64,000 nucleotides of DNA from positions 1-64,000 of the IMG/VR virus record IMGVR_UViG_3300028888_000119; one strand, given 5' to 3'. Positions 6,083 to 63,602 of the stretch are shown here, one piece after another (positions within the stretch are counted from its first letter, which is position 1; each line of letters opens with the position of its first letter). The notes beneath the pieces are model-generated. The model was not told the DNA's origin and searched no databases. It saw only the letters and a list, made by a program, of their open reading frames with translations. Position numbers and translations under genes: made by a program. Origin of the DNA: a virus. Lineage: Duplodnaviria > Caudoviricetes.

Positions 6083-6418
6083 CTAGTCCCCCTTCGCCTG
6101 TTTTAGTTCGATTCTTGTAACCTTGACGCCAGCACGCCACGGGAGATTAACATCTCGCACAATAGAAACTACCGACTCGATGGTCCTTCCGCTTTCCGTT
6201 TCGATGGTCACAAAGTCGTTAATTGCGATGAGTACATCGTTGTTCTCGATGAATACCGTTGGAGCACGGGTGATGATGGACCGCGAGTAACCAGAACCGC
6301 CTTCTTCGTAAAGGCAGGCCCCGTCGTAAATAACCTCGCGTTCCGGGTTGTCATAGTCGTCCTTGACACCAGTTTCGCGACTGATTACGCAATTGTCCCT
6401 GAACCCGATAAACTCCAT
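6083..6418 (-). CDS. Head closure / head-tail adaptor (putative)
   Basis: 111 aa, synteny, DDYDNP...YDGAC motif. Confidence 0.6.
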   Translation of the reverse strand: MEFIGFRDNCVISRETGVKDDYDNPEREVIYDGACLYEEGGSGYSRSIITRAPTVFIENNDVLIAINDFVTIETESGRTIESVVSIVRDVNLPWRAGVKVTRIELKQAKGD

Positions 6419-6819
6419 TATATTCTTCTTAAACTAGTAGCGTCATACATTTCGCTCGAAGAATCGTCATCTTCGACTTCGTATCCCCATTTAAGGCGGA
6501 GGGCGTCACCCATAGACTTGAAGCGAGCCCTATCCGCCATTGTTATAGTATATCCGCCCCTTGAGGCACGGACATCACCCACTTGTTCGGAATGACCACC
6601 TCCCGCAAAAACTCCCAACACCGAATAGTAGATTGTTGAAGAGGCGTAGTCTAGCCGTCTTTGGAAATCCTCGTCGTCGTCTTCATAGTCGTCGATATCA
6701 TCGTCGACCTCTAGACGCTCGAGGTGAGCCTCAATAGGGCTACGCGCTGCCCTGGCAATAACATTGTCCTGCAGGTCCAGTCCAGGAACGAGACTACGCA
6801 AATACTCTTCAACAGTCAT
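6418..6819 (-). CDS. Head-tail connector (putative)
   Basis: 133 aa directly after capsid gene; helical. Confidence 0.6.
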   Translation of the reverse strand: MTVEEYLRSLVPGLDLQDNVIARAARSPIEAHLERLEVDDDIDDYEDDDEDFQRRLDYASSTIYYSVLGVFAGGGHSEQVGDVRASRGGYTITMADRARFKSMGDALRLKWGYEVEDDDSSSEMYDATSLRRI

Positions 6820-25995: not shown

Positions 25996-26532
25996 CTATT
26001 CTAAAGTTATTAACTCCTTCGCAAAAGGAAGCGATTCGATCCACATGCAAAACTGATGCCACTCCTGCAAACGGTGACACTTCCTTTGGAAATAAATATT
26101 CCTCAAGCACTGATACGAAAAGCAATCAACCTTTGCCAGCTCCTTGCCCATTGGCATCTCCGCCTTGGCCCGCTGCAGCTCTTCACCGCTCAGTCCCTTG
26201 CAGTCGATATGCATCGTAGACGCACTCATCAGACGCTCGTGACCGGCACGGTAGGTCTCCTCCTCACACCACCAGTAGATCGGGGCCTCGATCCGAGCCC
26301 ACACAACCACTCCCCTCAACACCTTCGCATGCTCGTCACCGGCCCTTACAAGCCTTTGAAGCAACTCCATGTCCCTGCCGTCCAGCTTTGCCGTCCACTC
26401 AGCCTCCAGCGTTCCGTCATCGTGCATTCCGGCAGAACACCACAGCTCGCTCCTCTCATCCTTGCCATATGACAACCTGAGCGCCTTCAAGGCGCTTACG
26501 AAACCGGCAACCTCCAAGGTCTCTATCTTCAT
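25996..26532 (-). CDS. Divergent ThyX-like (flavin-dependent thymidylate synthase fold) protein
   Basis: HAKVLRGVVVWARIEAPIYWW...YR...SASTMH...YQCLRNIYFQRKCHRLQEW; next to dUTPase. Confidence 0.6.
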   Translation of the reverse strand: MKIETLEVAGFVSALKALRLSYGKDERSELWCSAGMHDDGTLEAEWTAKLDGRDMELLQRLVRAGDEHAKVLRGVVVWARIEAPIYWWCEEETYRAGHERLMSASTMHIDCKGLSGEELQRAKAEMPMGKELAKVDCFSYQCLRNIYFQRKCHRLQEWHQFCMWIESLPFAKELITLE

Positions 26533-44399: not shown

Positions 44400-44666
44400 A
44401 TGATTATGGATAAAGAAAAGGCAAAAGAATTCATATTTTTTGAACCTCTCGAAGAGATAATTTACATTTCAAAGGATGTCTATAAATTGATTGAACTCAA
44501 TGAGGGCTCTCTTGCAAACATTTATGCAGTTGTAGATACTGAAAGTGGTGAAAAAATGTTTGAAATGGATTTTGCCTATTCAGGAGAACCAATCATTATG
44601 AGGGTGTTCTTACATAAGGAATTTTTTATGAAGCATTACTGGAACCGAAAGAAGATTGAATTATGA
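44400..44666 (+). CDS. Hypothetical protein
   Basis: Start refined to 44400. Confidence 0.6.
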   Translation: MIMDKEKAKEFIFFEPLEEIIYISKDVYKLIELNEGSLANIYAVVDTESGEKMFEMDFAYSGEPIIMRVFLHKEFFMKHYWNRKKIEL

Positions 44667-45049
44667 TTGCCGAAGACTACGTATCATTTGAAACGGCTAA
44701 ACTCCTTAAAGAAAAGGGGTTTGATTGGGAAGTGCATAGAAGCTATCTTGTAAATGACAATGTGTTTATTCCAGGAGACATTAACGATGTTCCATTGAGA
44801 AAAGATGCAATTCGAATTCCAACACTCCAAATGGCAATGAAATGGTTGAGAGAAAACTTTAATATGAACCCGGTTCCTTATGCTCTATCCATTGGATGGG
44901 CGTTCGATGTCTTCGATTTGTCGGACAGAGATATTACCGGCTGCAAGAAGCTCTATTCTATGGATTTTCCTACAAAGAACGCTTGCTTTGAAACTTATGA
45001 ACAAGCCTGTGAATCGGCCATTAAGTATTGTTTAGAAAATTTAATTTAG
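44663..45049 (+). CDS. Hypothetical protein
   Basis: EDYVSFETAKLLKEKGF...PTLQMAMKWLRE...TYEQACE. Confidence 0.8.
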   Translation: MIAEDYVSFETAKLLKEKGFDWEVHRSYLVNDNVFIPGDINDVPLRKDAIRIPTLQMAMKWLRENFNMNPVPYALSIGWAFDVFDLSDRDITGCKKLYSMDFPTKNACFETYEQACESAIKYCLENLI

Positions 45050-45051
45050 AT

Positions 45052-45486
45052 ATGAAAAAGTACATCCTCGAACTAACTGAGAAGCAAGCAAGGGTTCTTT
45101 CATGGGCTTTAGACACTTTCCCAAGGCTGATTCAAGGACAATCTTTCGCGTATCAAGACCTCTTTGAAACTGCTTGGGAAAAGAGATGTAAGAAAGCCAC
45201 CGGAAATATGATGGATGAGGAGTTTGAAGGTGGCTGGTGGAAAATGCGAGAAGATGCAGAGGCTTTATGCAAGGAAATCAAGAGAAGATTCTGGAAACTG
45301 CCATATATTTCAGAAAACGGTCTGCACTACGATGATACCGCAGATATTCTGTGGGACATTCATCAGGTAATTCGCCATGAGCTTTGGAAAAACAATCCAG
45401 AACATACACCACTTACAGTAGATGCTTCCCCAGCTATGCAGGTAGGAAGTGAGCCATTGGCGAAGATACACACAAAGGAGGATTGA
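45052..45486 (+). CDS. Hypothetical protein
   Basis: Start refined to MKKYILEL. Confidence 0.7.
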   Translation: MKKYILELTEKQARVLSWALDTFPRLIQGQSFAYQDLFETAWEKRCKKATGNMMDEEFEGGWWKMREDAEALCKEIKRRFWKLPYISENGLHYDDTADILWDIHQVIRHELWKNNPEHTPLTVDASPAMQVGSEPLAKIHTKED

Positions 45487-45488
45487 CT

Positions 45489-45647
45489 ATGAATACAAAA
45501 CAGGCTATTGCAATACTTAAACAGCAAAGGGACTTCTGGTCTTATGATCTTCCAGATGGTATTGACAAACAAACACCCGCAGTTCTTCGGAGAGACCTTG
45601 TTGACGCAATGGATTTAGCAATTAGCATTATGAAAAAGGAGGGCTGA
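45489..45647 (+). CDS. Small hypothetical protein
   Basis: Manual translation MNTKQAIAILKQ..., 52 aa. Confidence 0.5.
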   Translation: MNTKQAIAILKQQRDFWSYDLPDGIDKQTPAVLRRDLVDAMDLAISIMKKEG

Positions 45648-45649
45648 TA

Positions 45650-45904
45650 ATGTATTGCTATTTGAAAAGCGGTGTCCGAAATGTACCTCACATGGTAGAG
45701 ATACCGGACGGGACAAAGGAGATTGCCGGGGTAATCATCTCCGGAGATGAAATCCTTGTCTACCCTTGTTTTTGCGATCCGGAATATGTAAACAGGATAT
45801 ATGATTTCTTTGATGGGGCATTTTGTCGGGTGTGGAAGAACGGTGAGTGGGTTGACAAGGATGACTACATGGAAATAGGAACAATGGAGGCTGATGATGA
45901 GTAA
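45650..45904 (+). CDS. Hypothetical protein
   Basis: 84 aa. Confidence 0.65.
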   Translation: MYCYLKSGVRNVPHMVEIPDGTKEIAGVIISGDEILVYPCFCDPEYVNRIYDFFDGAFCRVWKNGEWVDKDDYMEIGTMEADDE

Positions 45905-46049
45905 TCTTCAAAATTATCCCAACGAATCAGCAGCAGAAGCCCTAATGCATGAAAAGCATACTCTGAGGGAATGGATGATACTGTGTCTGCAACATCCAGA
46001 ATTAATGGAGGAATTTGATAAACTTGTAAAACCAGAACCTATTAAATAA
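45894..46049 (+). CDS. Small hypothetical protein
   Basis: Manual translation MMSNLQNYPNE..., 51 aa. Confidence 0.4.
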   Translation: MMSNLQNYPNESAAEALMHEKHTLREWMILCLQHPELMEEFDKLVKPEPIK

Positions 46050-46345
46050 TGAAACGTGCAGAGCAAAAATCCATTGAATGGCAAATAGCACATCACCCGA
46101 TGGCTATTGGTGGAGATGATTTCACTGATTTAGTTGAATACGTCAATATCAACCCAGCCTATGTTGCTGGCTATGAACAGGCTGAAAAAGATCTCGCACT
46201 GACCTGGGAGGATATCGCAAAGATAGATTCGCTTATCCTCGAAACGAATAATGAATTTGCGGTCGATTATCAAAAAGAAATCTCCAGACGGCAGTTCTAC
46301 GAAGCTGTGCTACAGAAGTATCTTCATCTAAACAACAGGGTTTAA
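46049..46345 (+). CDS. Hypothetical protein
   Basis: GYEQAEKDLALTWEDI module. Confidence 0.7.
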   Translation: MKRAEQKSIEWQIAHHPMAIGGDDFTDLVEYVNINPAYVAGYEQAEKDLALTWEDIAKIDSLILETNNEFAVDYQKEISRRQFYEAVLQKYLHLNNRV

Positions 46346-46382
46346 TTCGGCCATTAGTGGGATTAAGATAAATACAAATAAT

Positions 46383-46805
46383 ATGGAGAACAAGCAAGAA
46401 GACAAGTTTTTAAGGCAAGCGGATGTTGAAACGAGCACATTGTATATAATGTCGATTGCAATGGATCTAATTATGCGTGATTGTGCATGGCGTATGTCAC
46501 AAAAAAACGCATCTTGGAAACATGAAAAAAAGCAGAAATTTTCAAGGTATATTGAATCGGTGCGCCGTGCCTGCCAAATCAACGATGAAATCACCCAAGA
46601 CATATACGATTCGGATAAAAAGAATAATTACAAAAACGTGGATTTGTGGTTGAAGGACGGCAATGAATTGGCGAGACTAATTCTTTTATTCGCAGACAGA
46701 TCAACTAATACTGGTGTCGTTCGAAATGTGTTTTTGGGGTTGGAGTCGTCAAATGGGGAAGGTATCATAGATGATGAACTATTGAAAAAATTCTATCTTA
46801 AATAA
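46383..46805 (+). CDS. Hypothetical helical protein
   Basis: 140 aa, last plus-strand gene. Confidence 0.75.
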   Translation: MENKQEDKFLRQADVETSTLYIMSIAMDLIMRDCAWRMSQKNASWKHEKKQKFSRYIESVRRACQINDEITQDIYDSDKKNNYKNVDLWLKDGNELARLILLFADRSTNTGVVRNVFLGLESSNGEGIIDDELLKKFYLK

Positions 46806-46843
46806 AAAGGTCCGACGGGAACCGCAAAACCCATCGGACCTTA
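46804..46843. terminator. Terminator between convergent operons
   Basis: AAAAAGGTCCGA-CGGG...CCCA-TCGGACCTT. Confidence 0.65.
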
Positions 46844-46863
46844 CCGACCGAAAGAAACTTGCC

Positions 46864-47268
46864 TCAATCGTGTCGGCAATGCGGACAAGACAGCTCGCAC
46901 ACAATATCCGAAATCGTACTGGTGATGTCACCAGTTAAATATGCAAATTTTTCCGACAACGGGTCAATCCCATCCTCTCCGGCGACATGCTGTGCAATAT
47001 GTGTAATTTCGTGCGCGGTACTGTTCAAGAACTCCGGCCCAGTGCTTGTCATTCCTACTCCAACCACGCTCCGCCTGAGAGAGGGGTTGCTAAAGCAGAA
47101 CCCCTCGTTCAAGCGACCGGCTTGGACATTCCGTTCCACTTGGGAAATGATAGAATTCGGAGCGTCGGCCCAGACAAGGGCTTCGTGGATCCGCTCCATA
47201 TCGTACTGATCGAAAGAGAACAGGAACAGAATGGTCCAATACCGAATATGTACTTTTCGGATGAGCAT
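46864..47268 (-). CDS. HExxH putative zinc metallopeptidase
   Basis: EFLNSTAHEITH...E; start refined to MLIRKV (TAATG overlap). Confidence 0.65.
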   Translation of the reverse strand: MLIRKVHIRYWTILFLFSFDQYDMERIHEALVWADAPNSIISQVERNVQAGRLNEGFCFSNPSLRRSVVGVGMTSTGPEFLNSTAHEITHIAQHVAGEDGIDPLSEKFAYLTGDITSTISDIVCELSCPHCRHD

Positions 47269-47672
47269 TACATGAGGTCTTCCCAAATCAAAGGGATGTC
47301 CAGCGCGAGAGTCTTTGCATAAAGCTCGTCAAACGCCCTCGTCTTGCTTCCGTCCTTATCGTCGCAATAGTCCATGACAAACTTGGCCAGGTGAGCCTCG
47401 TCCGTGATGGATGAGCCCATGTAGTCGGCCATACCCATTGCCCAGACATATGGCACATCGTAAGCCTTGTCGTTTTTAACCGTAACGCCGTTCGCTTTCA
47501 GTTTCTCCAGGACGGCATCTTTTTCCATTGTCTTTACCTTTCCGCCATCCCTGGTCTCCATCATGCCGACAGCAAGCTCATAGAGCGGCTTGCTGATATG
47601 CCGGCCATAATAAGACATATATTCCCTCATGCCGCGAGGGACCACCTCGTATGCGTCGATTCTTTCTGCCAT
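47268..47672 (-). CDS. Conserved-looking helical hypothetical protein (module gene 5)
   Basis: 134 aa, MREYMSYYGRH...YDVPYVWAMGMADY. Confidence 0.75.
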   Translation of the reverse strand: MAERIDAYEVVPRGMREYMSYYGRHISKPLYELAVGMMETRDGGKVKTMEKDAVLEKLKANGVTVKNDKAYDVPYVWAMGMADYMGSSITDEAHLAKFVMDYCDDKDGSKTRAFDELYAKTLALDIPLIWEDLM

Positions 47673-47724
47673 TTCTTTACTTTTTTGTGGAAAATTATTT
47701 CATTTTTACGGCCCAAAATATGTA

Positions 47725-47744
47725 GGGGCGAGTTTCCCCGCCCC
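47725..47744 (-). terminator. GNRA-capped hairpin, possible weak terminator/processing site
   Basis: GGGGCGGG-GAAA-CTCGCCCC. Confidence 0.4.
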
Positions 47745-47753
47745 GGAATGATT

Positions 47754-48074
47754 TTACATGAAACGTCCGCGAGAGTCCCGACGACGGCGCTCGCCCATCA
47801 TCATATCATCGTAGTCCATTTCTTCGCGTTCTCCGTAGCCACCTCGTCCGCCATAGCCGCCGCGCATTCCGTAGCCGCCTCGACTGCCATAACTGGGCCA
47901 GCTCCCGTAAGAACCGCCACGACGTTCACCATACAGGTCCGCCATCTCTTCTGCGAGTTCACAAATGCGCTCCATGCCCTCTTTGGCCATGTCCATTGCG
48001 TCCTCGAATTCTCGCATATCGGAAGACTTCCTGCCGTAGCTACCGCCTCTAAGGTTGTATACTGCGTATCCCAT
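47754..48074 (-). CDS. Low-complexity RGG/YG-rich protein (module gene 4)
   Basis: GGSYGSWPSYGSRGGYGMRGGYGGRGGYG; C-terminal RRRRDSRGRFM. Confidence 0.8.
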   Translation of the reverse strand: MGYAVYNLRGGSYGRKSSDMREFEDAMDMAKEGMERICELAEEMADLYGERRGGSYGSWPSYGSRGGYGMRGGYGGRGGYGEREEMDYDDMMMGERRRRDSRGRFM

Positions 48075-48076
48075 TT

Positions 48077-48586
48077 TTATTCCTCCTTTTTCTTGCCCAG
48101 CGACTTAGAGAGCATTCCCGTTAGTGCTGCGATCTGCTCGCTCATGCCTGAAAGTTGCTCCTTTAGATTGGCTATCTCCTGCGCCTGCTCCTGCTCCTTT
48201 TTAAGTTGTGGATTTAGGTCGAAGAGAAGTTTATCGCAGGATGCAATCACATTTTTGTGCATATCTACTTGCTGGAGCGCCGTAACGCTCGCGCTTTTGA
48301 TCGCATTAACTTCGTTGATAATCCCGTCTCTCGTCTCGCTGATGAGCACACCCTTGTCGGGAAACTCTGCTATCGATGAATTGAGAGGAATTCTTTCATA
48401 GGTCTCAATCTTTCCGTCTACTTCGATTGCGATGTTTACGGCTAAATTGTTCCCTGGTACCAGCGGTTGCTGATATCCGAGGTTTGGATATTGGTTGCTC
48501 ACTTGAGAAACCTTTGCGACCGCGAATCGCGGTTCGTTCTTGTAAAGAACATAAACGGGCGTTCCGGCCCTAAGTGCACTGAGCAT
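48077..48586 (-). CDS. Beta-domain plus coiled-coil protein (module gene 3)
   Basis: 169 aa; EQEQAQEIANLKEQLSGMSEQIAAL heptads. Confidence 0.8.
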   Translation of the reverse strand: MLSALRAGTPVYVLYKNEPRFAVAKVSQVSNQYPNLGYQQPLVPGNNLAVNIAIEVDGKIETYERIPLNSSIAEFPDKGVLISETRDGIINEVNAIKSASVTALQQVDMHKNVIASCDKLLFDLNPQLKKEQEQAQEIANLKEQLSGMSEQIAALTGMLSKSLGKKKEE

Positions 48587-48612
48587 AATTTGTAATTTTG
48601 AATAATTCTAAT

Positions 48613-48945
48613 TTAGACGATTGGTGAAGTCGCCTGCAAAATTCCGTTATACCAGTCATAGAAGACTGTGATAATGCCGGTACCGGTAAGGTCTGCGGCA
48701 GTGACGGCTACGCCTCCGAATGTGGTCAGTGCCCTTGTTTGTCCGTTGAGTGTAAGCCGGACTGGCAAAGTACCTGTTGTTCCAGTAGGGATTGCGTCAG
48801 CAATGTTGATCGTCAAGTACCCGACGGGTGGAATTCTCCGGAAACCGAGAGAAAAATCCACGGACTCAGTACCGACCGTAACACTGTTTGTGCGTAGGTA
48901 AGGAATCCCAGAGGCGTTTGTAGTAATATTAACGCATCCGAACAT
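48613..48945 (-). CDS. Small beta-rich protein (module gene 2)
   Basis: 110 aa Thr/Gly/Val-rich. Confidence 0.8.
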   Translation of the reverse strand: MFGCVNITTNASGIPYLRTNSVTVGTESVDFSLGFRRIPPVGYLTINIADAIPTGTTGTLPVRLTLNGQTRALTTFGGVAVTAADLTGTGIITVFYDWYNGILQATSPIV

Positions 48946-48957
48946 AACCTTGCCCTC

Positions 48958-49893
48958 CTAGAATACTACACCGTTACCGAATCCGCCCCAGCCCGGGCCA
49001 TAGTAACCGCCGCCGAAGCCGCCCTGGTAATAACCGCCGCTCACATATGGAGTAGCATTCACCGCGACAAGATTCGGGTACTGTACAGTTGCCGTAGAAG
49101 GGAGTTTGCATTTGATGTCGTCAACCTCACGTGCAAGAGGAGCGATCATGCCGGCGATTGCGTTGGTCTGGCGAGCGTTGTCAGCCTCGTTACGCAGCTG
49201 GGTAATAATGTCGCCCTGGCGGGTGATAGTCTGCTGCATGTCGCGTTTCTCGGCGGCACAGAACTGGTCAATCATCGTGGACTTGAGGTCTGCGATGGCA
49301 CCGGCAAGAGTCTCGGTCTGACGGAGGGTTGCGAGCTGGTTCTCGTAGCCCTGGGAGGTGACGAGCTGCTTCATTTCGCAACAGCACGAACATAAGTTTG
49401 CAGCGAGGCTAGCGTCACCGGCCTGGATTGCGTTGATGATCTGCTGTGCGGAGAGGCCGGTCTGGCCAGTCAAAGCAGTGAGTCCGTTCTGCAGGGTTGC
49501 GAGGTTGGTCTTCACGGTATTGACATCGCTGTTGAGGGTTGTGGCCAGGAGGCGCACGTCGCTGTCAGTTCCGTCGATAGCGCGAAGGATAGTGTCGGTG
49601 TTGCCGATTGCTGTTGCCTGAGCGCCAAGGGAAGCCGCAGCAGCGCCGCCGCCATTACCCCAGCTATTCATGCCCCAGTTTCCGAATCCGACGCCGTTCC
49701 AGATGAGCCCTCCGAGGAGACCACCAAGGATACCGGCTCCAAAGCCAGATCCGCCGAAAAGACCACCGCCGTAAGGGTAGCCATTATTCCAGCCAAGGCC
49801 ATTTCCGTTCAGAGCCAGGGCCAGAGGAATCCCACTGTTCCAACCACTCGACTGGTTGTCCGGCAGGATTATCGTTTTACTTTCATCAGCCAT
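48958..49893 (-). CDS. Gly-rich / coiled-coil / CSCCC protein (module gene 1)
   Basis: N-terminal Gly-zipper hydrophobic segment, long heptad region, LCSCCC, Gly/Tyr-rich C-terminus. Confidence 0.85.
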   Translation of the reverse strand: MADESKTIILPDNQSSGWNSGIPLALALNGNGLGWNNGYPYGGGLFGGSGFGAGILGGLLGGLIWNGVGFGNWGMNSWGNGGGAAAASLGAQATAIGNTDTILRAIDGTDSDVRLLATTLNSDVNTVKTNLATLQNGLTALTGQTGLSAQQIINAIQAGDASLAANLCSCCCEMKQLVTSQGYENQLATLRQTETLAGAIADLKSTMIDQFCAAEKRDMQQTITRQGDIITQLRNEADNARQTNAIAGMIAPLAREVDDIKCKLPSTATVQYPNLVAVNATPYVSGGYYQGGFGGGYYGPGWGGFGNGVVF

Positions 49894-49925
49894 GATAAAT
49901 AACTTTAAGGTTAAACTTATAGGTT

Positions 49926-49956
49926 CGATAAGCGCTTTATCGTTACCGCAAAGTTA
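49926..49956 (-). promoter_or_regulatory. Promoter -7 box and palindrome upstream of module
   Basis: TAACTTTG (49956-49949); CGATAA-N5-TTATCG at 49926-49942 just after predicted start site; no clear -33 box. Confidence 0.55.
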
Positions 49957-50037
49957 ATTAAAGCAAACCCGCACCGGCAGTCTGCTACAACCTTTAGTTA
50001 TTTATCTGATTTTAAGGTGATTAGGTTTAACTGGAAA

Positions 50038-50328
50038 TTATTTTTGACCTTTCTTCCTCCACTTGTCCGGAATAATTTTCGCGAAACGATGGAATGGATA
50101 TAGTACTTTCCTTTGCGGCTTTGCAATAAGCTTCCTGCAAATAGTCGCCCTTACATTTGATTCTGAGACATCATAGAACTTAGCAAAGTCGTCTATCGTG
50201 CCATGCACTTCCATGTTATTTTCCAAAGCCTTTAGAGCATCATTCATTTCGCTCATCTCGCAAAGATTGTTGTCTACCTTGTACTTGTAGTATCCGAGGA
50301 TTTCGGACAGTAATTTATTTCCTTCCAT
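50038..50328 (-). CDS. Putative HTH DNA-binding protein
   Basis: TIDDFAKFYDVSESNVRATICRK. Confidence 0.6.
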   Translation of the reverse strand: MEGNKLLSEILGYYKYKVDNNLCEMSEMNDALKALENNMEVHGTIDDFAKFYDVSESNVRATICRKLIAKPQRKVLYPFHRFAKIIPDKWRKKGQK

Positions 50329-50731
50329 TTGAGAAAAATACCTTGTAAGCTGAGAATAAAAGAAGAACGGACATTATAACTGTCAAGGAATTCGTGATAT
50401 AAGCTTCTGTTTGTGACAGCTCAATAATATAATAATCAAAAAGAGATACAATAAGAGGGAATAATGGCAAAACACAAGCCATACGATGCCATTTACATAA
50501 GTGAAGGATCTTGGAATATACCAGATGCGTCACGACTATTATCGGAGAAATATAGAATAACGTGTCGCATACTTTCATACATGACTCAGACATCGCAGAA
50601 TACATGGCGAAATCCAAGATGTACAATGAGGCATAAACGAACGGAACAATTTGTACCGATAGCGTTATAGACCTAAGCGTCTTTATTAAGCGCTTGATTC
50701 TACCGATATCTAATTCTTGGCCTTCCACCAC
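50315..50731 (-). CDS. Multi-pass membrane protein
   Basis: 138 aa, about four hydrophobic segments; GTG start. Confidence 0.7.
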   Translation of the reverse strand: MVEGQELDIGRIKRLIKTLRSITLSVQIVPFVYASLYILDFAMYSAMSESCMKVCDTLFYISPIIVVTHLVYSKILHLCKWHRMACVLPLFPLIVSLFDYYIIELSQTEAYITNSLTVIMSVLLLFSAYKVFFSNGRK

Positions 50732-50888
50732 TTGTCATTTTTACATTTACAAGCACTTGTGCCTTGGTTTGGTACATCCGTTCACCACTAGGATGCTGTG
50801 TGCGCACAACTGCAACCGGCACTCTTGCAATAAGTGTACCGGAATTACCGGATTTTTTCGGTTTAACAGTGACTTTTATTTTTCCCAT
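50700..50888 (-). CDS. Small basic protein
   Basis: 62 aa, in operon. Confidence 0.5.
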   Translation of the reverse strand: MGKIKVTVKPKKSGNSGTLIARVPVAVVRTQHPSGERMYQTKAQVLVNVKMTSGGRPRIRYR

Positions 50889-51280
50889 TTCCTTTTTACT
50901 CGTCCAAGTTTATCCGCCCACCTTTCCCACGGCTGGGTGTAATACCACCTGCACGATTTCTCATACGGCCAGTGCTTGTGGGCTATGGAGTCATAGATGT
51001 TGCCGCAAAGAGAGGGAAGTCCGATGACAAATAGGTATAACGGCCCGAGATACCTGGACTGTATCGTATGGCCGTATTCGTGGCGCATTCCGTCCTCTTT
51101 GTCTTCACGATGCATGATGATGTAGTCGCCGAGCGAGATTCCGCTACGCATCTCGCTAGTGTAGTAGAAGGTTCTCCCATTAAGTCGATGATACTCCTTC
51201 TCCCTCTTGTAAATTAGAAGGAGAAGGAGACCAAGGAGATTTTGCGGCAACTGCCATATGTAGAGTAGAACACGGAGCAT
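50876..51280 (-). CDS. Membrane-associated HExxH protein
   Basis: YIWQLPQNLLGLLLLL...GISLG...RHEYGHTIQSRYLGPLYL...WERWADKLG. Confidence 0.75.
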   Translation of the reverse strand: MLRVLLYIWQLPQNLLGLLLLLIYKREKEYHRLNGRTFYYTSEMRSGISLGDYIIMHREDKEDGMRHEYGHTIQSRYLGPLYLFVIGLPSLCGNIYDSIAHKHWPYEKSCRWYYTQPWERWADKLGRVKRKWEK

Positions 51281-62310: not shown

Positions 62311-62937
62311 TTATTTTTCAATGGTTATGAAGTTCGCCCCAAGAACTTTCGTGTGCGGGTTCTTTGAGACGACATCCATCGTTCGGTTTTTGATTCTCTT
62401 CGTCTTCCAAAGGAATCCAAGGAATCTTTTGTATTCGATACTCTCGGCAATTACAATGCTGTCACGGCTTTCCATCTTTCCGGTAAATGACGTCTTTGTA
62501 ATAACCCCATCGAAATCATACCAAGCGTCTCCGCAGTGGACTGCACGGGCCTCCTCTTTAATTTCATTACCGACAGTGTCTTTGTATACAATAACGGTGT
62601 CCACCGGTACGCTATGAAGTTGATAAATGGTTTGATTTTGAGACTTAACGACCCTATCTAAGTCCTTTACTTTCGTCTTAAGTGACGCTATCAGTTTCGC
62701 ATCTTCCGCCATAAATTTCTTATACTCCGACATCTTCAGCTCCAGACCTTGAACCCTGGCGGCATTTAAGGAGTCCTTTGTCTTGTAAGTGTCAATCTCC
62801 GAGAGAAGAGCATCGGAGTTTCTGTGATAGCGGTCTCGTTCTTTGCGGGCATCTTTTAGAGAGAGTCCCATCCAAATTATGGCTCCCACCAAGGCCACTG
62901 CGACGGCTGCAGCTGCGATATAGAGATACTTTTTCAT
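62311..62937 (-). CDS. Spanin-like / DUF6549-like lysis accessory
   Basis: N-terminal TM, coiled coil, DAWY, KRFLGFLWKTK...SKNPHT; adjacent to endolysin. Confidence 0.6.
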   Translation of the reverse strand: MKKYLYIAAAAVAVALVGAIIWMGLSLKDARKERDRYHRNSDALLSEIDTYKTKDSLNAARVQGLELKMSEYKKFMAEDAKLIASLKTKVKDLDRVVKSQNQTIYQLHSVPVDTVIVYKDTVGNEIKEEARAVHCGDAWYDFDGVITKTSFTGKMESRDSIVIAESIEYKRFLGFLWKTKRIKNRTMDVVSKNPHTKVLGANFITIEK

Positions 62938-63602
62938 ATGTTTGTTTTTTTCTTTAAGTAATCCATCGTTCCAGTTACAAGCACCTCCGCGACGTCGTAG
63001 TGGAAGCCGGGTGAGTTGATGTAGTCATAGTCCTGCTTGTTATCCATAAAAAAGTTTTCACAAAGGATAGCAGGGCAGTTAGTGTTTCTGAGGATGTAGA
63101 AGTCGCTTTCGTAGTCGTGGTCCCCGTCGGATGTGTCCGATATGGTCTTCAATCCATCCGTACCGTTGTGCCATTTCTCGTTTGCCCTCTGCCATACGCA
63201 CTCCGCCCACTTATCCGATTCTGTCACGCCGCGGGTCGTCCAGACGCTCCATCCCCTTGCCTTCATCCATTGCCCGTTGCCCGCCGCATTGAGATGGCAG
63301 GAAAGCATAAGCACATGGTCTTTACCGAGGACGGAGCACTGGGCATTCACCCTACGGCAACGCTCACCGAGAGAGATGTCCACTGTCTCAGGTACGAGCA
63401 ACTCGGCATCCATACCGATTCCCCTAAACAACGTCACCACCGCCTCGGCAACATCACGGTTAACGTGCCACTCCTTGATGACCATATCAGGAGAGTGCTT
63501 GCCAGCGGTGTTATAGCCATGACCGTTGTCCACAAGTATGCGGACGCGCCCCAACTTGCTAAGGACCAAACTGGAAAGAGTTTTCAAGTAATTTAGATCC
63601 AT
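62934..63602 (-). CDS. Endolysin, N-acetylmuramoyl-L-alanine amidase (Amidase_3)
   Basis: ILVDNGHG, KEW, SCHLNA, FYILRNTNCPAILCENFFMDN. Confidence 0.92.
   Translation of the reverse strand: MDLNYLKTLSSLVLSKLGRVRILVDNGHGYNTAGKHSPDMVIKEWHVNRDVAEAVVTLFRGIGMDAELLVPETVDISLGERCRRVNAQCSVLGKDHVLMLSCHLNAAGNGQWMKARGWSVWTTRGVTESDKWAECVWQRANEKWHNGTDGLKTISDTSDGDHDYESDFYILRNTNCPAILCENFFMDNKQDYDYINSPGFHYDVAEVLVTGTMDYLKKKTNI

Follow-up and report, generated by a model that had tools for sequence, protein, structure and literature searches.

Do the six small, tightly packed genes that follow the tail-fibre genes of a rumen Bacteroidales phage form a self-contained, separately regulated unit, and if so, what might their products do? 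The window analysed here is a 64,000-nucleotide stretch (positions 1 to 64,000 of the IMG/VR record IMGVR_UViG_3300028888_000119). A preliminary description, made from the sequence alone, noted a six-gene module with its own promoter and terminator, preceded by a helix-turn-helix (HTH) gene and a four-segment membrane protein gene. We found this observation to be correct: all eight open reading frames, the promoter box, the palindrome and the terminator are present at the positions given. The block is a genuine operon, kept in the same gene order in many unrelated gut phages. The interpretation offered with the observation, as detailed below, was supported only in part. The genes are named T, H and A to F, in the order of transcription, and all lie on the minus strand.

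Features of the operon and its upstream genes, in window coordinates
Feature	Coordinates	Strand	Length	Description
T	50315..50731	-	138 aa	Four hydrophobic segments; possible holin or membrane partner
H	50038..50328	-	96 aa	HTH protein; likely regulator (repressor) of the operon, inferred
Promoter box	49949..49956	-		Bacteroidota-type -7 box, TAACTTTG
Palindrome	49926..49942	-		Putative operator over the transcript start, CGATAAAGCGCTTATCG
A	48958..49893	-	311 aa	Residues 1-84 Gly/Asn/Trp-rich and nearly uncharged, with a short hydrophobic Gly-zipper segment; predicted helices over 85-157, then one helix over 161-263 with the CSCCC motif; tail (264-311) Gly/Tyr/Phe-rich
B	48613..48945	-	110 aa	Predicted beta-sandwich; most conserved protein of the set
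C	48077..48586	-	169 aa	By sequence, N-terminal beta-rich part, then C-terminal coiled coil and basic end
D	47754..48074	-	106 aa	Arg/Gly/Tyr/Met-rich low-complexity protein with an acidic helix and a conserved RRxRDSRGR[YF] end
D-E hairpin	47725..47744	-		GC-rich, terminator-like; possibly an attenuator
E	47268..47672	-	134 aa	DUF7841 protein
F	46864..47286	-	140 aa	Predicted small zincin-type metallopeptidase; HExxH (HEITH), Glu 16 residues after the second His, CPxC at the end
Terminator	46798..46842	-		Intrinsic terminator closing the operon

To examine whether the genes travel together, we compared the order of their homologues across IMG/VR. The order A-B-C-D-E-F, on the same strand, recurs in about 62-72 of 74 loci on contigs of 4.5-141 kb, and also occurs in the cultured Bacteroides phage C3_41T2LP and in the crAss-like phages cr4_1 and cr116_1. 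In contrast, HMMs for A, B, C, E and F found nothing in ΦcrAss001, although cr116_1 belongs to the same subfamily, so the block is accessory. HMM homologues of T lie upstream of H/A in 27 loci, including cr116_1. Conservation of this order in dozens of unrelated phage contigs is more than would be expected by chance. The preliminary description also placed similar proteins in phages of Bacillota, for which we found no evidence: the hits that carry a host label are Bacteroides or Bacteroidales.

We next asked whether the block carries its own control elements. A host-type -7 box, TAnnTTTG, lies 50-86 nt upstream of the start of A in 31 of 63 distinct loci, compared with 7 of 936 other genes (0.75%) in the same loci, an enrichment of about 65-fold. 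H-type relatives carry nAACTTTG at the same place, and in several of them a GC-rich inverted repeat followed by a T-run, read by eye as a terminator, sits just before the box. Several loci carry a palindrome just after the box, and at the same offset other loci carry a palindrome different from that of the window. H itself has only a weak match to HTH_71 (E 0.077), but its positional counterparts in other loci hit HTH_17, and in nearly every locus a 75-105-aa HTH gene, of at least three unrelated types, sits 80-170 bp upstream of A. At the other end of the block, the terminator consists of a 13-bp hairpin followed by a U-run, with a free energy of -24.8 kcal/mol and a z of -2.9.

Assembled contigs from RNA libraries tile positions 46880-49934, at a k-mer depth of 17-28. 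Four contigs from four libraries (SRR7633495, SRR10838682, and JGI 3300024337 and 3300037037) are 100% identical to the window and start at 49929-49934, inside the palindrome, and the two JGI contigs end at 46863 and 46872. These ends match a single mRNA of about 3.07 kb (49934 to 46863). RNA contigs read through the hairpin between D and E, as illustrated by the contig 46907-48121. It should be kept in mind that this evidence rests on assembled contigs, that the two runs known to be RNA, which are rumen metatranscriptomes, come from one sample, and that the library type of the two JGI samples is unverified. Exact-protein look-ups found B and C in those libraries, whereas the capsid protein, a 123-aa head protein, a 193-aa tail protein and H were found only in long or mixed contigs of other samples, which is a weak hint on relative abundance.

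The individual proteins were then compared with known families and structures. A has more than 3356 homologues, falling into 432 clusters at 50% identity, but no Pfam match, and its PHROG family, phrog_16490, has unknown function. The helical layout of A comes from an AF2 model. In the family alignment C172 is invariant and C170 and C171 are nearly invariant, and the N-terminal motif is conserved while the C-terminal tail varies. Residues 1-84 are 31% Gly with almost no charge, and the tail is 27% Gly, 12% Tyr and 6% Phe. The hydrophobic segment of A is short: no 19-mer reaches the Kyte-Doolittle threshold of 1.6, which is met by four 19-mers in T, and no flanking basic residues set its topology. 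Many homologues, however, have a truly hydrophobic Leu/Ile/Phe/Trp segment, and one homologue, P0191, carries a DnaJ-like J domain plus a Gly/Phe region in place of the N-terminus. B is modelled by AF2 with high confidence (pLDDT 91), and its mean column identity is 52%. Its best solved match is bead III of the tail fibre gp47 of Pseudomonas phage Pa193 (PDB 9b45; PMC11456595), with Z 5.7, rmsd 3.1 and 88 residues aligned, which stands clear of the next match (Z 3.0) but is below the level considered safe for the method. Matches of B in BFVD are to tail-fibre and receptor-binding proteins, with E of 1e-4 to 1e-2.

C belongs to phrog_28898 and gave only coiled-coil-type matches in PDB. Counterparts of D with the same make-up and the same C-terminal motif occur in most loci, and D-type proteins keep Arg/Tyr/Gly repeats across lineages. 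E matches DUF7841 (PF25223) with 47.4 bits against a curated cut-off of 25.2 (E 2.7e-12), and phrog_38431. In F, H92, E93, H96 and E112 are invariant in 49 sequences, as expected for a zincin in which the Glu provides the third zinc ligand on the next helix. Searches of F against Pfam and NCBIfam gave no hit, and in PDB myroilysin reached only E 0.7. T has no Pfam, PHROG or PADLOC hit, and no holin family match; in the window it lies 12 kb from the amidase, whereas in cr116_1 it follows the endolysin. By eye, no signal peptide or lipobox was seen in A-F, and none of B-F has a hydrophobic 19-mer reaching the threshold. None of the nine proteins searched matched a PADLOC profile at E up to 0.1. 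No lysis, defence or solved-structure family matched the set.

Natural fusions tie the proteins together. We identified two B-C fusions (P0272 and P0273) and a possible A-B fusion (P0271), a fusion of E to a B-like domain in the BFVD entry A0A8S5LXP6, and a D-like tail fused to an E-like domain in cr4_1 gp15.

Returning to the preliminary interpretation, our results support a dedicated, co-conserved and separately regulated unit that is not part of the core virion, lysis or replication sets, and the picture of a fibre with a hydrophobic anchor plus a peptidase fits the models and motifs. None of the functions proposed there (pore, exclusion, competition or lysogenic conversion) was shown. Classical lysogenic conversion is doubtful here because this phage has no tyrosine integrase.

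Our best reading, which we hold only tentatively, is that the block is an insulated, horizontally mobile accessory operon of Bacteroidales phages, built like a moron, whose six proteins build one membrane-linked, fibre-like assembly for which no role has been described. In this view, unmodified host RNA polymerase would make the complex in large amounts outside the late virion programme, with H most likely acting as the repressor of the promoter. A would be a long helical stalk that tethers the complex to the cytoplasmic face of the membrane, B a bead-like domain, C a beta-rich part plus a coiled coil, D a sticky disordered protein with a conserved C-terminal peptide, E the hub that links B and D, and F a small zinc peptidase that presumably trims one of the partners. 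The complex would not be a part of the particle, and would serve the phage while it occupies the cell, most likely by shutting out other phages or changing the envelope. Gene order, promoter, terminator, transcript ends, fusions, the modelled fold of B and the catalytic motif of F are established by the analysis, whereas the repressor role of H, which is deduced from where the operator lies, the membrane topology, the timing of expression and the biological role, including any exclusion or defence function, are inferred. Several observations weigh against this reading. In TAG-recoded cr4_1, A and C carry in-frame TAG codons, which in such phages usually mark late genes; the fold of B and the coiled coils look like virion fibre parts; the block sits in or beside the late structural and lysis region; the hydrophobic segment of A is short; and without a tyrosine integrase, expression from a prophage is unlikely in this phage.

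An accessory virion appendage is the leading alternative, although we consider it less likely. A, B and C would form a trimeric fibre or a head or tail decoration, with a coiled-coil shaft, a bead domain and a Gly-rich tip, while D, E and F would be assembly helpers and a maturation peptidase, and such a module could be swapped between phages as tail-fibre modules are. In addition to the resemblance of B to fibre domains and the TAG recoding in cr4_1, homologues of A have been labelled 'viral fiber' or 'spike' by others, the block follows the tail-fibre genes in the late strand block of the window, the N-terminal motif of A is conserved while its C-terminal tail varies, as in fibres, and ΦcrAss001 encodes a head-fibre protein (gp29, PF25641) inside its lysis block, so accessory virion genes do sit in such places. 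However, the block has its own host-type promoter, operator and terminator and is not read through from the late operon; it occurs in both long-tailed siphovirus-type and crAss-like phages, which would need different docking sites; B is far more conserved than fibre tips usually are; A has a hydrophobic, uncharged Gly-rich head; an Arg/Gly/Tyr disordered protein is not a usual fibre helper; and there is a hint that complete head and tail genes are not assembled in the libraries that hold the operon transcript. We found no proteome of a cassette-bearing phage, and nothing shows that the proteins are in particles.

Two further possibilities appear unlikely. The proteins might be late helpers of lysis or release, accumulating in the cytoplasm, passing through holin lesions as endolysins do, and attacking the outer membrane or capsule through the fusion-peptide-like ends of A and the Arg-rich end of D. 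Upstream neighbours are indeed rich in endolysins and holins: among 119 ORFs taken from the three genes upstream of A, we counted 8 DUF5675 (the endolysin family of ΦcrAss001 gp30), 8 DUF6808, 4 Phage_holin_4_1, 2 Amidase_3, 2 Tlde1 and 1 GH108. Moreover, the membrane protein T travels with the block, and in cr4_1 and cr116_1 the block follows the holin or the endolysin. On the other hand, the phage of the window already has an amidase and an Rz-like DUF6549 protein 12 kb away, C3_41T2LP has the block among recombination genes, there is no lipoprotein partner, an operator over the start site and a canonical host promoter do not fit a purely late gene set, and D is, by our count, a net-neutral polyampholyte rather than a cationic peptide. 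Alternatively, the Gly/aromatic ends of A and the Arg/Gly/Tyr tract of D could act as sticky low-complexity regions of an intracellular scaffold or condensate, with the coiled coils and a B trimer giving multivalency, to form a gel-like body or membrane-attached platform for phage replication or assembly. The k-mer depth of the transcript would suit a product needed in bulk, and the J domain of P0191 is in line with this idea, but the proposal rests on composition only, the hydrophobic segment of many A homologues looks more like a membrane anchor than a low-complexity region, and no RNA- or DNA-binding domain was detected. A bacteriocin-like competition device released at lysis, with a colicin-like layout of a Gly-rich head, a long coiled coil and a membrane-active segment, is very unlikely: its only support is a resemblance in layout and in regulation by a repressible strong promoter, and no toxin domain, immunity-type gene or anything similar was found in any library searched.

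Among described systems, phage morons such as lambda bor and lom share with the block an independent host-type promoter and terminator, a position at the edge of the late region, presence or absence between close relatives, and movement between unrelated phages. The block differs in having six co-conserved genes rather than one or two, a dedicated HTH regulator and operator, and an occurrence in virulent crAss-like phages; for expression while the rest of the phage is silent, the only support is the contig-level RNA data described above. Trimeric tail fibres such as Pa193 gp47 resemble the set in the predicted beta-sandwich of B, the long coiled coils of A and C and the Gly/aromatic-rich tail of A, but B is a free-standing protein and A carries a hydrophobic Gly-zipper head. 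By analogy only, the PhiX174 DNA pilot protein H and class I fusion proteins or spanins share a Gly-rich hydrophobic N-terminal segment followed by a very long helix, with the Cys cluster in the helical part. No sequence similarity to them appeared among the hits of a protein-level tblastn of a phage collection assumed to include microviruses, and the set has no C-terminal anchor, no lipoprotein partner and no export signals in B-F. Judged by hydropathy and by inspection by eye for a lipobox or signal peptide, the operon products do not fulfil the criteria for a spanin, an inner-membrane anchor with a periplasmic coiled coil plus an outer-membrane lipoprotein part with a lipobox. Separately, the phage has a protein with a membrane anchor and a coiled coil (DUF6549) next to its amidase. 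Finally, zincin-like metallopeptidase domains of polyvalent proteins (Iyer et al. 2017, PMC5512222) differ from F in being domains of giant injected proteins, whereas F is a stand-alone protein of about 135 aa without a profile match; F shares with them HExxH plus a downstream Glu on what should be the next helix, and its homologue in C3_41T2LP is annotated as a PolyVal metallopeptidase.

The 72.7-kb virus record, of which the window forms most, is estimated to be complete and lacks end repeats. The phage is of siphovirus type, with terminase, portal and tape-measure genes on the minus strand. The tape-measure ORF runs off the start of the record, and the tail genes seem to continue from the other end, down to a 2185-aa fibre protein. 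This fibre gene is followed, all on the minus strand, by Z (134 aa, with one hydrophobic segment and the motif HEYGH), T (138 aa, with four hydrophobic segments), H (96 aa, HTH-like), a 144-bp gap, the six tightly packed genes A to F, and a strong hairpin followed by a U-run. The early genes of the plus strand converge on this terminator. The gene block, the -7 box and the 17-bp palindrome were found as reported in the preliminary description, whose observation is thus correct. Its interpretation as a dedicated, regulated system is partly supported by the data presented below, in that the block is a conserved and separately transcribed unit, while the functions proposed there stay inferences.

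Coordinates of the features discussed in the text
Feature	Record	Position	Strand
2185-aa fibre protein	window	57837-51280	-
Z, 134-aa protein	window	50876-51280	-
-7 box, TAACTTTG	window	49956-49949	
17-bp palindrome	window	49942-49926	
GC-rich hairpin and T-rich run in the 81-nt gap between D and E	window	47725-47744	-
Predicted lysis pair (both genes)	window	62311-63602	-
Amidase_3 gene	window	63602-62934	-
DUF6549 gene	window	62937-62311	-
gp29, matching Head_fiber_dimeric	ΦcrAss001	26039-26407	
115-aa protein with HECLH motif	cr116_1	6234-6581	

To examine whether the block is conserved, we searched its proteins against family and metagenome collections. Pfam recognizes only E, as DUF7841, and PHROGs places A, B, C, E and F in five families of unknown function. 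Protein A alone has more than 3356 relatives among clusters at 90% identity, none of them named, and 432 among representatives at 50% identity. In 74 IMG/VR loci found through A, tblastn and then HMM searches detected B in 72-73, C in 68-71, E in 69-71 and F in 62-70, and the genes always lie in the order A-B-C-(D)-E-F on one strand, in host contigs that range from 4.5 to 141 kb. D escapes BLAST because it is of low complexity, but a small Arg/Gly/Tyr-rich ORF ending in RRxRDSRGR[YF], or a close variant, fills the gap between C and E in most loci. The cultured Bacteroides phage C3_41T2LP carries the whole set, as do Crassvirales of two families, cr4_1 (Suoliviridae) and cr116_1 (Steigviridae). 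In contrast, ΦcrAss001, which belongs to the same subfamily as cr116_1, has no homolog of A, B, C, E or F, indicating that the block is accessory and not part of the conserved crass particle. HNH/NUMOD4 homing endonuclease genes are inserted on the opposite strand at three different intergenic sites of the cassette (A/B, B/C and E/F) in about 18 loci (among them those numbered L003-L008, L016, L022, L026, L040, L051, L056, L060, L066, L067 and L070 in our set). Labeled hosts are Bacteroides or Bacteroidales, and one copy lies on a 243-kb Bacteroidales contig and so is probably a prophage. We found nothing to support the occurrence in Bacillota phages mentioned in the preliminary description.

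Several lines of evidence indicate that the block is a separate transcription unit. The motif TAnnTTTG lies 50-86 nt upstream of the A start codon in 31 of 63 distinct loci, whereas only 7 of 936 other same-strand genes in those loci have it at that position. Close relatives with an H-type regulator carry nAACTTTG at the same place. In several of them a GC-rich inverted repeat plus a T-run, read by eye as a terminator, sits just before the box, and in most of them a palindrome follows it, with a sequence that differs from locus to locus. We considered a shared GATA..TATC operator for H-type regulators, but this was not borne out, since it was present in 3 of 15 H-type loci against 3 of 49 others. 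The gene directly upstream of A almost always encodes a 75-105-aa HTH protein, and at least three unrelated types, including HTH_17, fill this position. An exception is cr116_1, in which the gene just before A encodes a 115-aa protein with an HECLH motif and the HTH_17 gene lies one step further upstream. A palindrome over the start site suggests a repressor, although this step is an inference.

Two sheep-rumen metatranscriptome runs from one sample hold contigs that tile 46880-49934. Exact-protein look-ups then recovered four contigs from four libraries (SRR7633495, SRR10838682, JGI 3300024337 and JGI 3300037037), all 100% identical to the window and starting at 49934, 49932, 49929 and 49934, which is 15-20 nt beyond the -7 box and inside the palindrome. 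The two JGI contigs are 3072 and 3061 nt long and end at 46863 and 46872, at the stop codon of F. Shared ends at the predicted promoter and just before the terminator are what one polycistronic mRNA would give. RNA contigs read through the GC-rich hairpin between D and E, which may tune the ratio of A-D to E-F. We suspected that other homologs on contigs of about 3 kb were transcripts as well, but P0014 and P0025 turned out to be ordinary DNA contigs with neighboring genes and homing endonucleases. A weaker hint concerns abundance. Complete copies of the capsid protein, a 123-aa head protein, a 193-aa tail protein and H turn up only in longer or mixed contigs of other samples and not in those four libraries. 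Similarly, the flanks of the operon (early genes at 44500-46400, the H/T/Z genes and the tail-fibre gene) carry almost no contigs in the RNA libraries, while the DNA run covers them evenly, but an uncovered part is not in itself evidence and serves here only as a hint. No capsid-gene contigs were found for the two JGI samples that hold the operon-length contigs, in a search that may leave out records identical to the window. An excess of the transcript over virion genes is therefore suggested rather than shown.

Natural fusions link the six proteins. B is fused to C in the homologs P0272 and P0273, A to B in P0271, which may be a frameshift artifact, DUF7841 to a B-like domain in a crAss-like virus, and an E-like domain to a D-like Arg/Gly tail in cr4_1 gp15. 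By eye, none of B-F has a signal peptide or lipobox, so they share a compartment with the helical part of A. The AF2 model of A is confident only for the helices at residues 85-157 and for one helix at 161-263, about 100 residues long with pLDDT above 90 in its second half, and both Gly-rich ends are unmodeled. In the family, Cys172 is invariant and Cys170 and Cys171 are nearly so. The first 84 residues are 31% Gly with almost no charge, and hold a hydrophobic core of 12-15 residues, with a median Kyte-Doolittle score of 1.7 over 15 residues and values up to 2.7. One member of the A family, P0191, begins instead with a DnaJ-type J domain and a Gly/Phe-rich region, which could be a real chimera or an assembly artifact. 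B is predicted with pLDDT 91 to fold into a beta-sandwich, and its best solved match is bead III of the trimeric tail fibre gp47 of phage Pa193 (Z 5.7, rmsd 3.1, 88 residues aligned; PMC11456595), a score that stands clear of the next row at Z 3.0 but lies below the level considered safe for this method. BFVD returned the orthologs of B and then many tail-fibre and receptor-binding proteins. B is about twice as conserved as its neighbors, with a mean column identity of 52% against 32-41% for C, E and F. F keeps H92, E93, H96 and E112 in all 49 sequences aligned, which is the zincin arrangement described for polyvalent-protein peptidases (PMC5512222).

Other searches gave no assignment. A Foldseek search of the A model against PDB returned nothing below E 1, and PDB profile searches with B, C, E and F returned only chance-level or coiled-coil rows. 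PADLOC defence profiles and NCBIfam profiles gave nothing meaningful, and a match of D to a His-Xaa-Ser repeat protein reflects low complexity. Searches of the ESM Atlas with B and C found only the unnamed viral clusters of B itself and no usable hit for C, with no structural model for either, and blastn of the block against phage records found no match. The phage has no tyrosine integrase. The cassette is also not the lysis set of the phage, which consists elsewhere of an Amidase_3 endolysin and an Rz-like DUF6549 protein with an N-terminal membrane anchor and a coiled coil. ΦcrAss001 gp27, annotated as a lysis regulatory protein, matches DUF6549 weakly (E 0.0017). No holin lies beside the pair, so T, 12 kb away, may be the holin.

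Lysis genes are enriched upstream of the cassette, namely DUF5675 (the family of the ΦcrAss001 gp30 endolysin), DUF6808, holins and amidases, and T travels with the block in 27 loci, which points to a link with the envelope or with the end of infection. This adjacency is ambiguous, however, because ΦcrAss001 gp29, annotated as hypothetical and lying between the holin and the endolysin, matches Pfam Head_fiber_dimeric (E 3.6e-33), so that a virion accessory gene sits inside a lysis block. A virion fibre is favored by the predicted fold of B, the coiled coils, the position next to the tail fibres, and the TAG recoding of A and C in cr4_1, where the in-frame TAG codons in many late genes (gp13, gp16 and gp18-gp20), including the A and C homologs, fit such recoding. 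Speaking against a virion fibre, and likewise against a purely late lysis helper, are the canonical host promoter, which is rare at this position among other genes of these phages, the operator over the start site, the insulation by terminators, the portability across particle types, the hydrophobic and uncharged head of A, the unusual disordered protein D, and the hint that the transcript far exceeds the virion genes in RNA libraries.

We therefore tentatively place first a moron-type accessory operon, whose abundant product would be a membrane-tethered complex acting while the phage occupies the cell. An accessory virion fibre appears less likely, an intracellular scaffold or condensate and a lysis helper are more doubtful still and nearly equal to each other, and a bacteriocin-like device is very unlikely, with some weight left to none of these. 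Gene order, promoter, terminator, transcript ends, fusions, the modeled fold of B and the catalytic motif of F are supported directly by the analysis, whereas the repressor role of H, the membrane topology, the timing of expression, peptidase activity and the biological role are inferred. A further possibility, likewise tentative, is that the cassette encodes a so far undescribed kind of phage-made cell structure, an abundant assembly tethered to the membrane by the Gly-zipper of A, built from coiled-coil stalks, a fibre-bead trimer and sticky Gly/Tyr/Arg low-complexity tails, trimmed by its own zinc peptidase and switched by a dedicated repressor. It would act either as a new type of superinfection-exclusion or envelope-remodeling machine or as an organelle-like scaffold, shared across siphovirus-type and crAss-like phages of Bacteroidales.

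The regulatory layout is of a known type, the moron, but the six-protein content and whatever it builds match no described system. The families are catalogued only as unknowns (PHROGs and one DUF), and none of the six proteins has a described function. Literature searches on C3_41T2LP, on DUF7841 and on crAss with glycine zipper returned no papers, and those on Bacteroides spanins and on B. uniformis phages returned nothing on this cassette. Yet the cassette is common in gut and rumen Bacteroidales phages, including crAss-like phages, the most abundant human gut viruses, is kept in strict order, carries its own switch, and appears as a discrete mRNA, judged from contig ends, in rumen RNA libraries. 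Because a cultured carrier exists, phage C3_41T2LP on B. uniformis, the question of its role is directly testable. An exclusion device or a new intracellular structure would add a new element to how gut phages hold and use their hosts, while a virion fibre would be a portable host-range module, and in either case the six unknown families would receive a function.

The genes preceding the cassette in the window were also examined. An HMM built from Z, whose single hydrophobic segment is N-terminal, hits ΦcrAss001 gp4, which is annotated as DUF4157, so a second small putative metallopeptidase sits next to the cassette, just after the giant fibre gene. The Pfam hits of the 2185-aa fibre protein are Laminin_G_3 and BspA-type LRR_5, and a CotH-like kinase domain is not among them.
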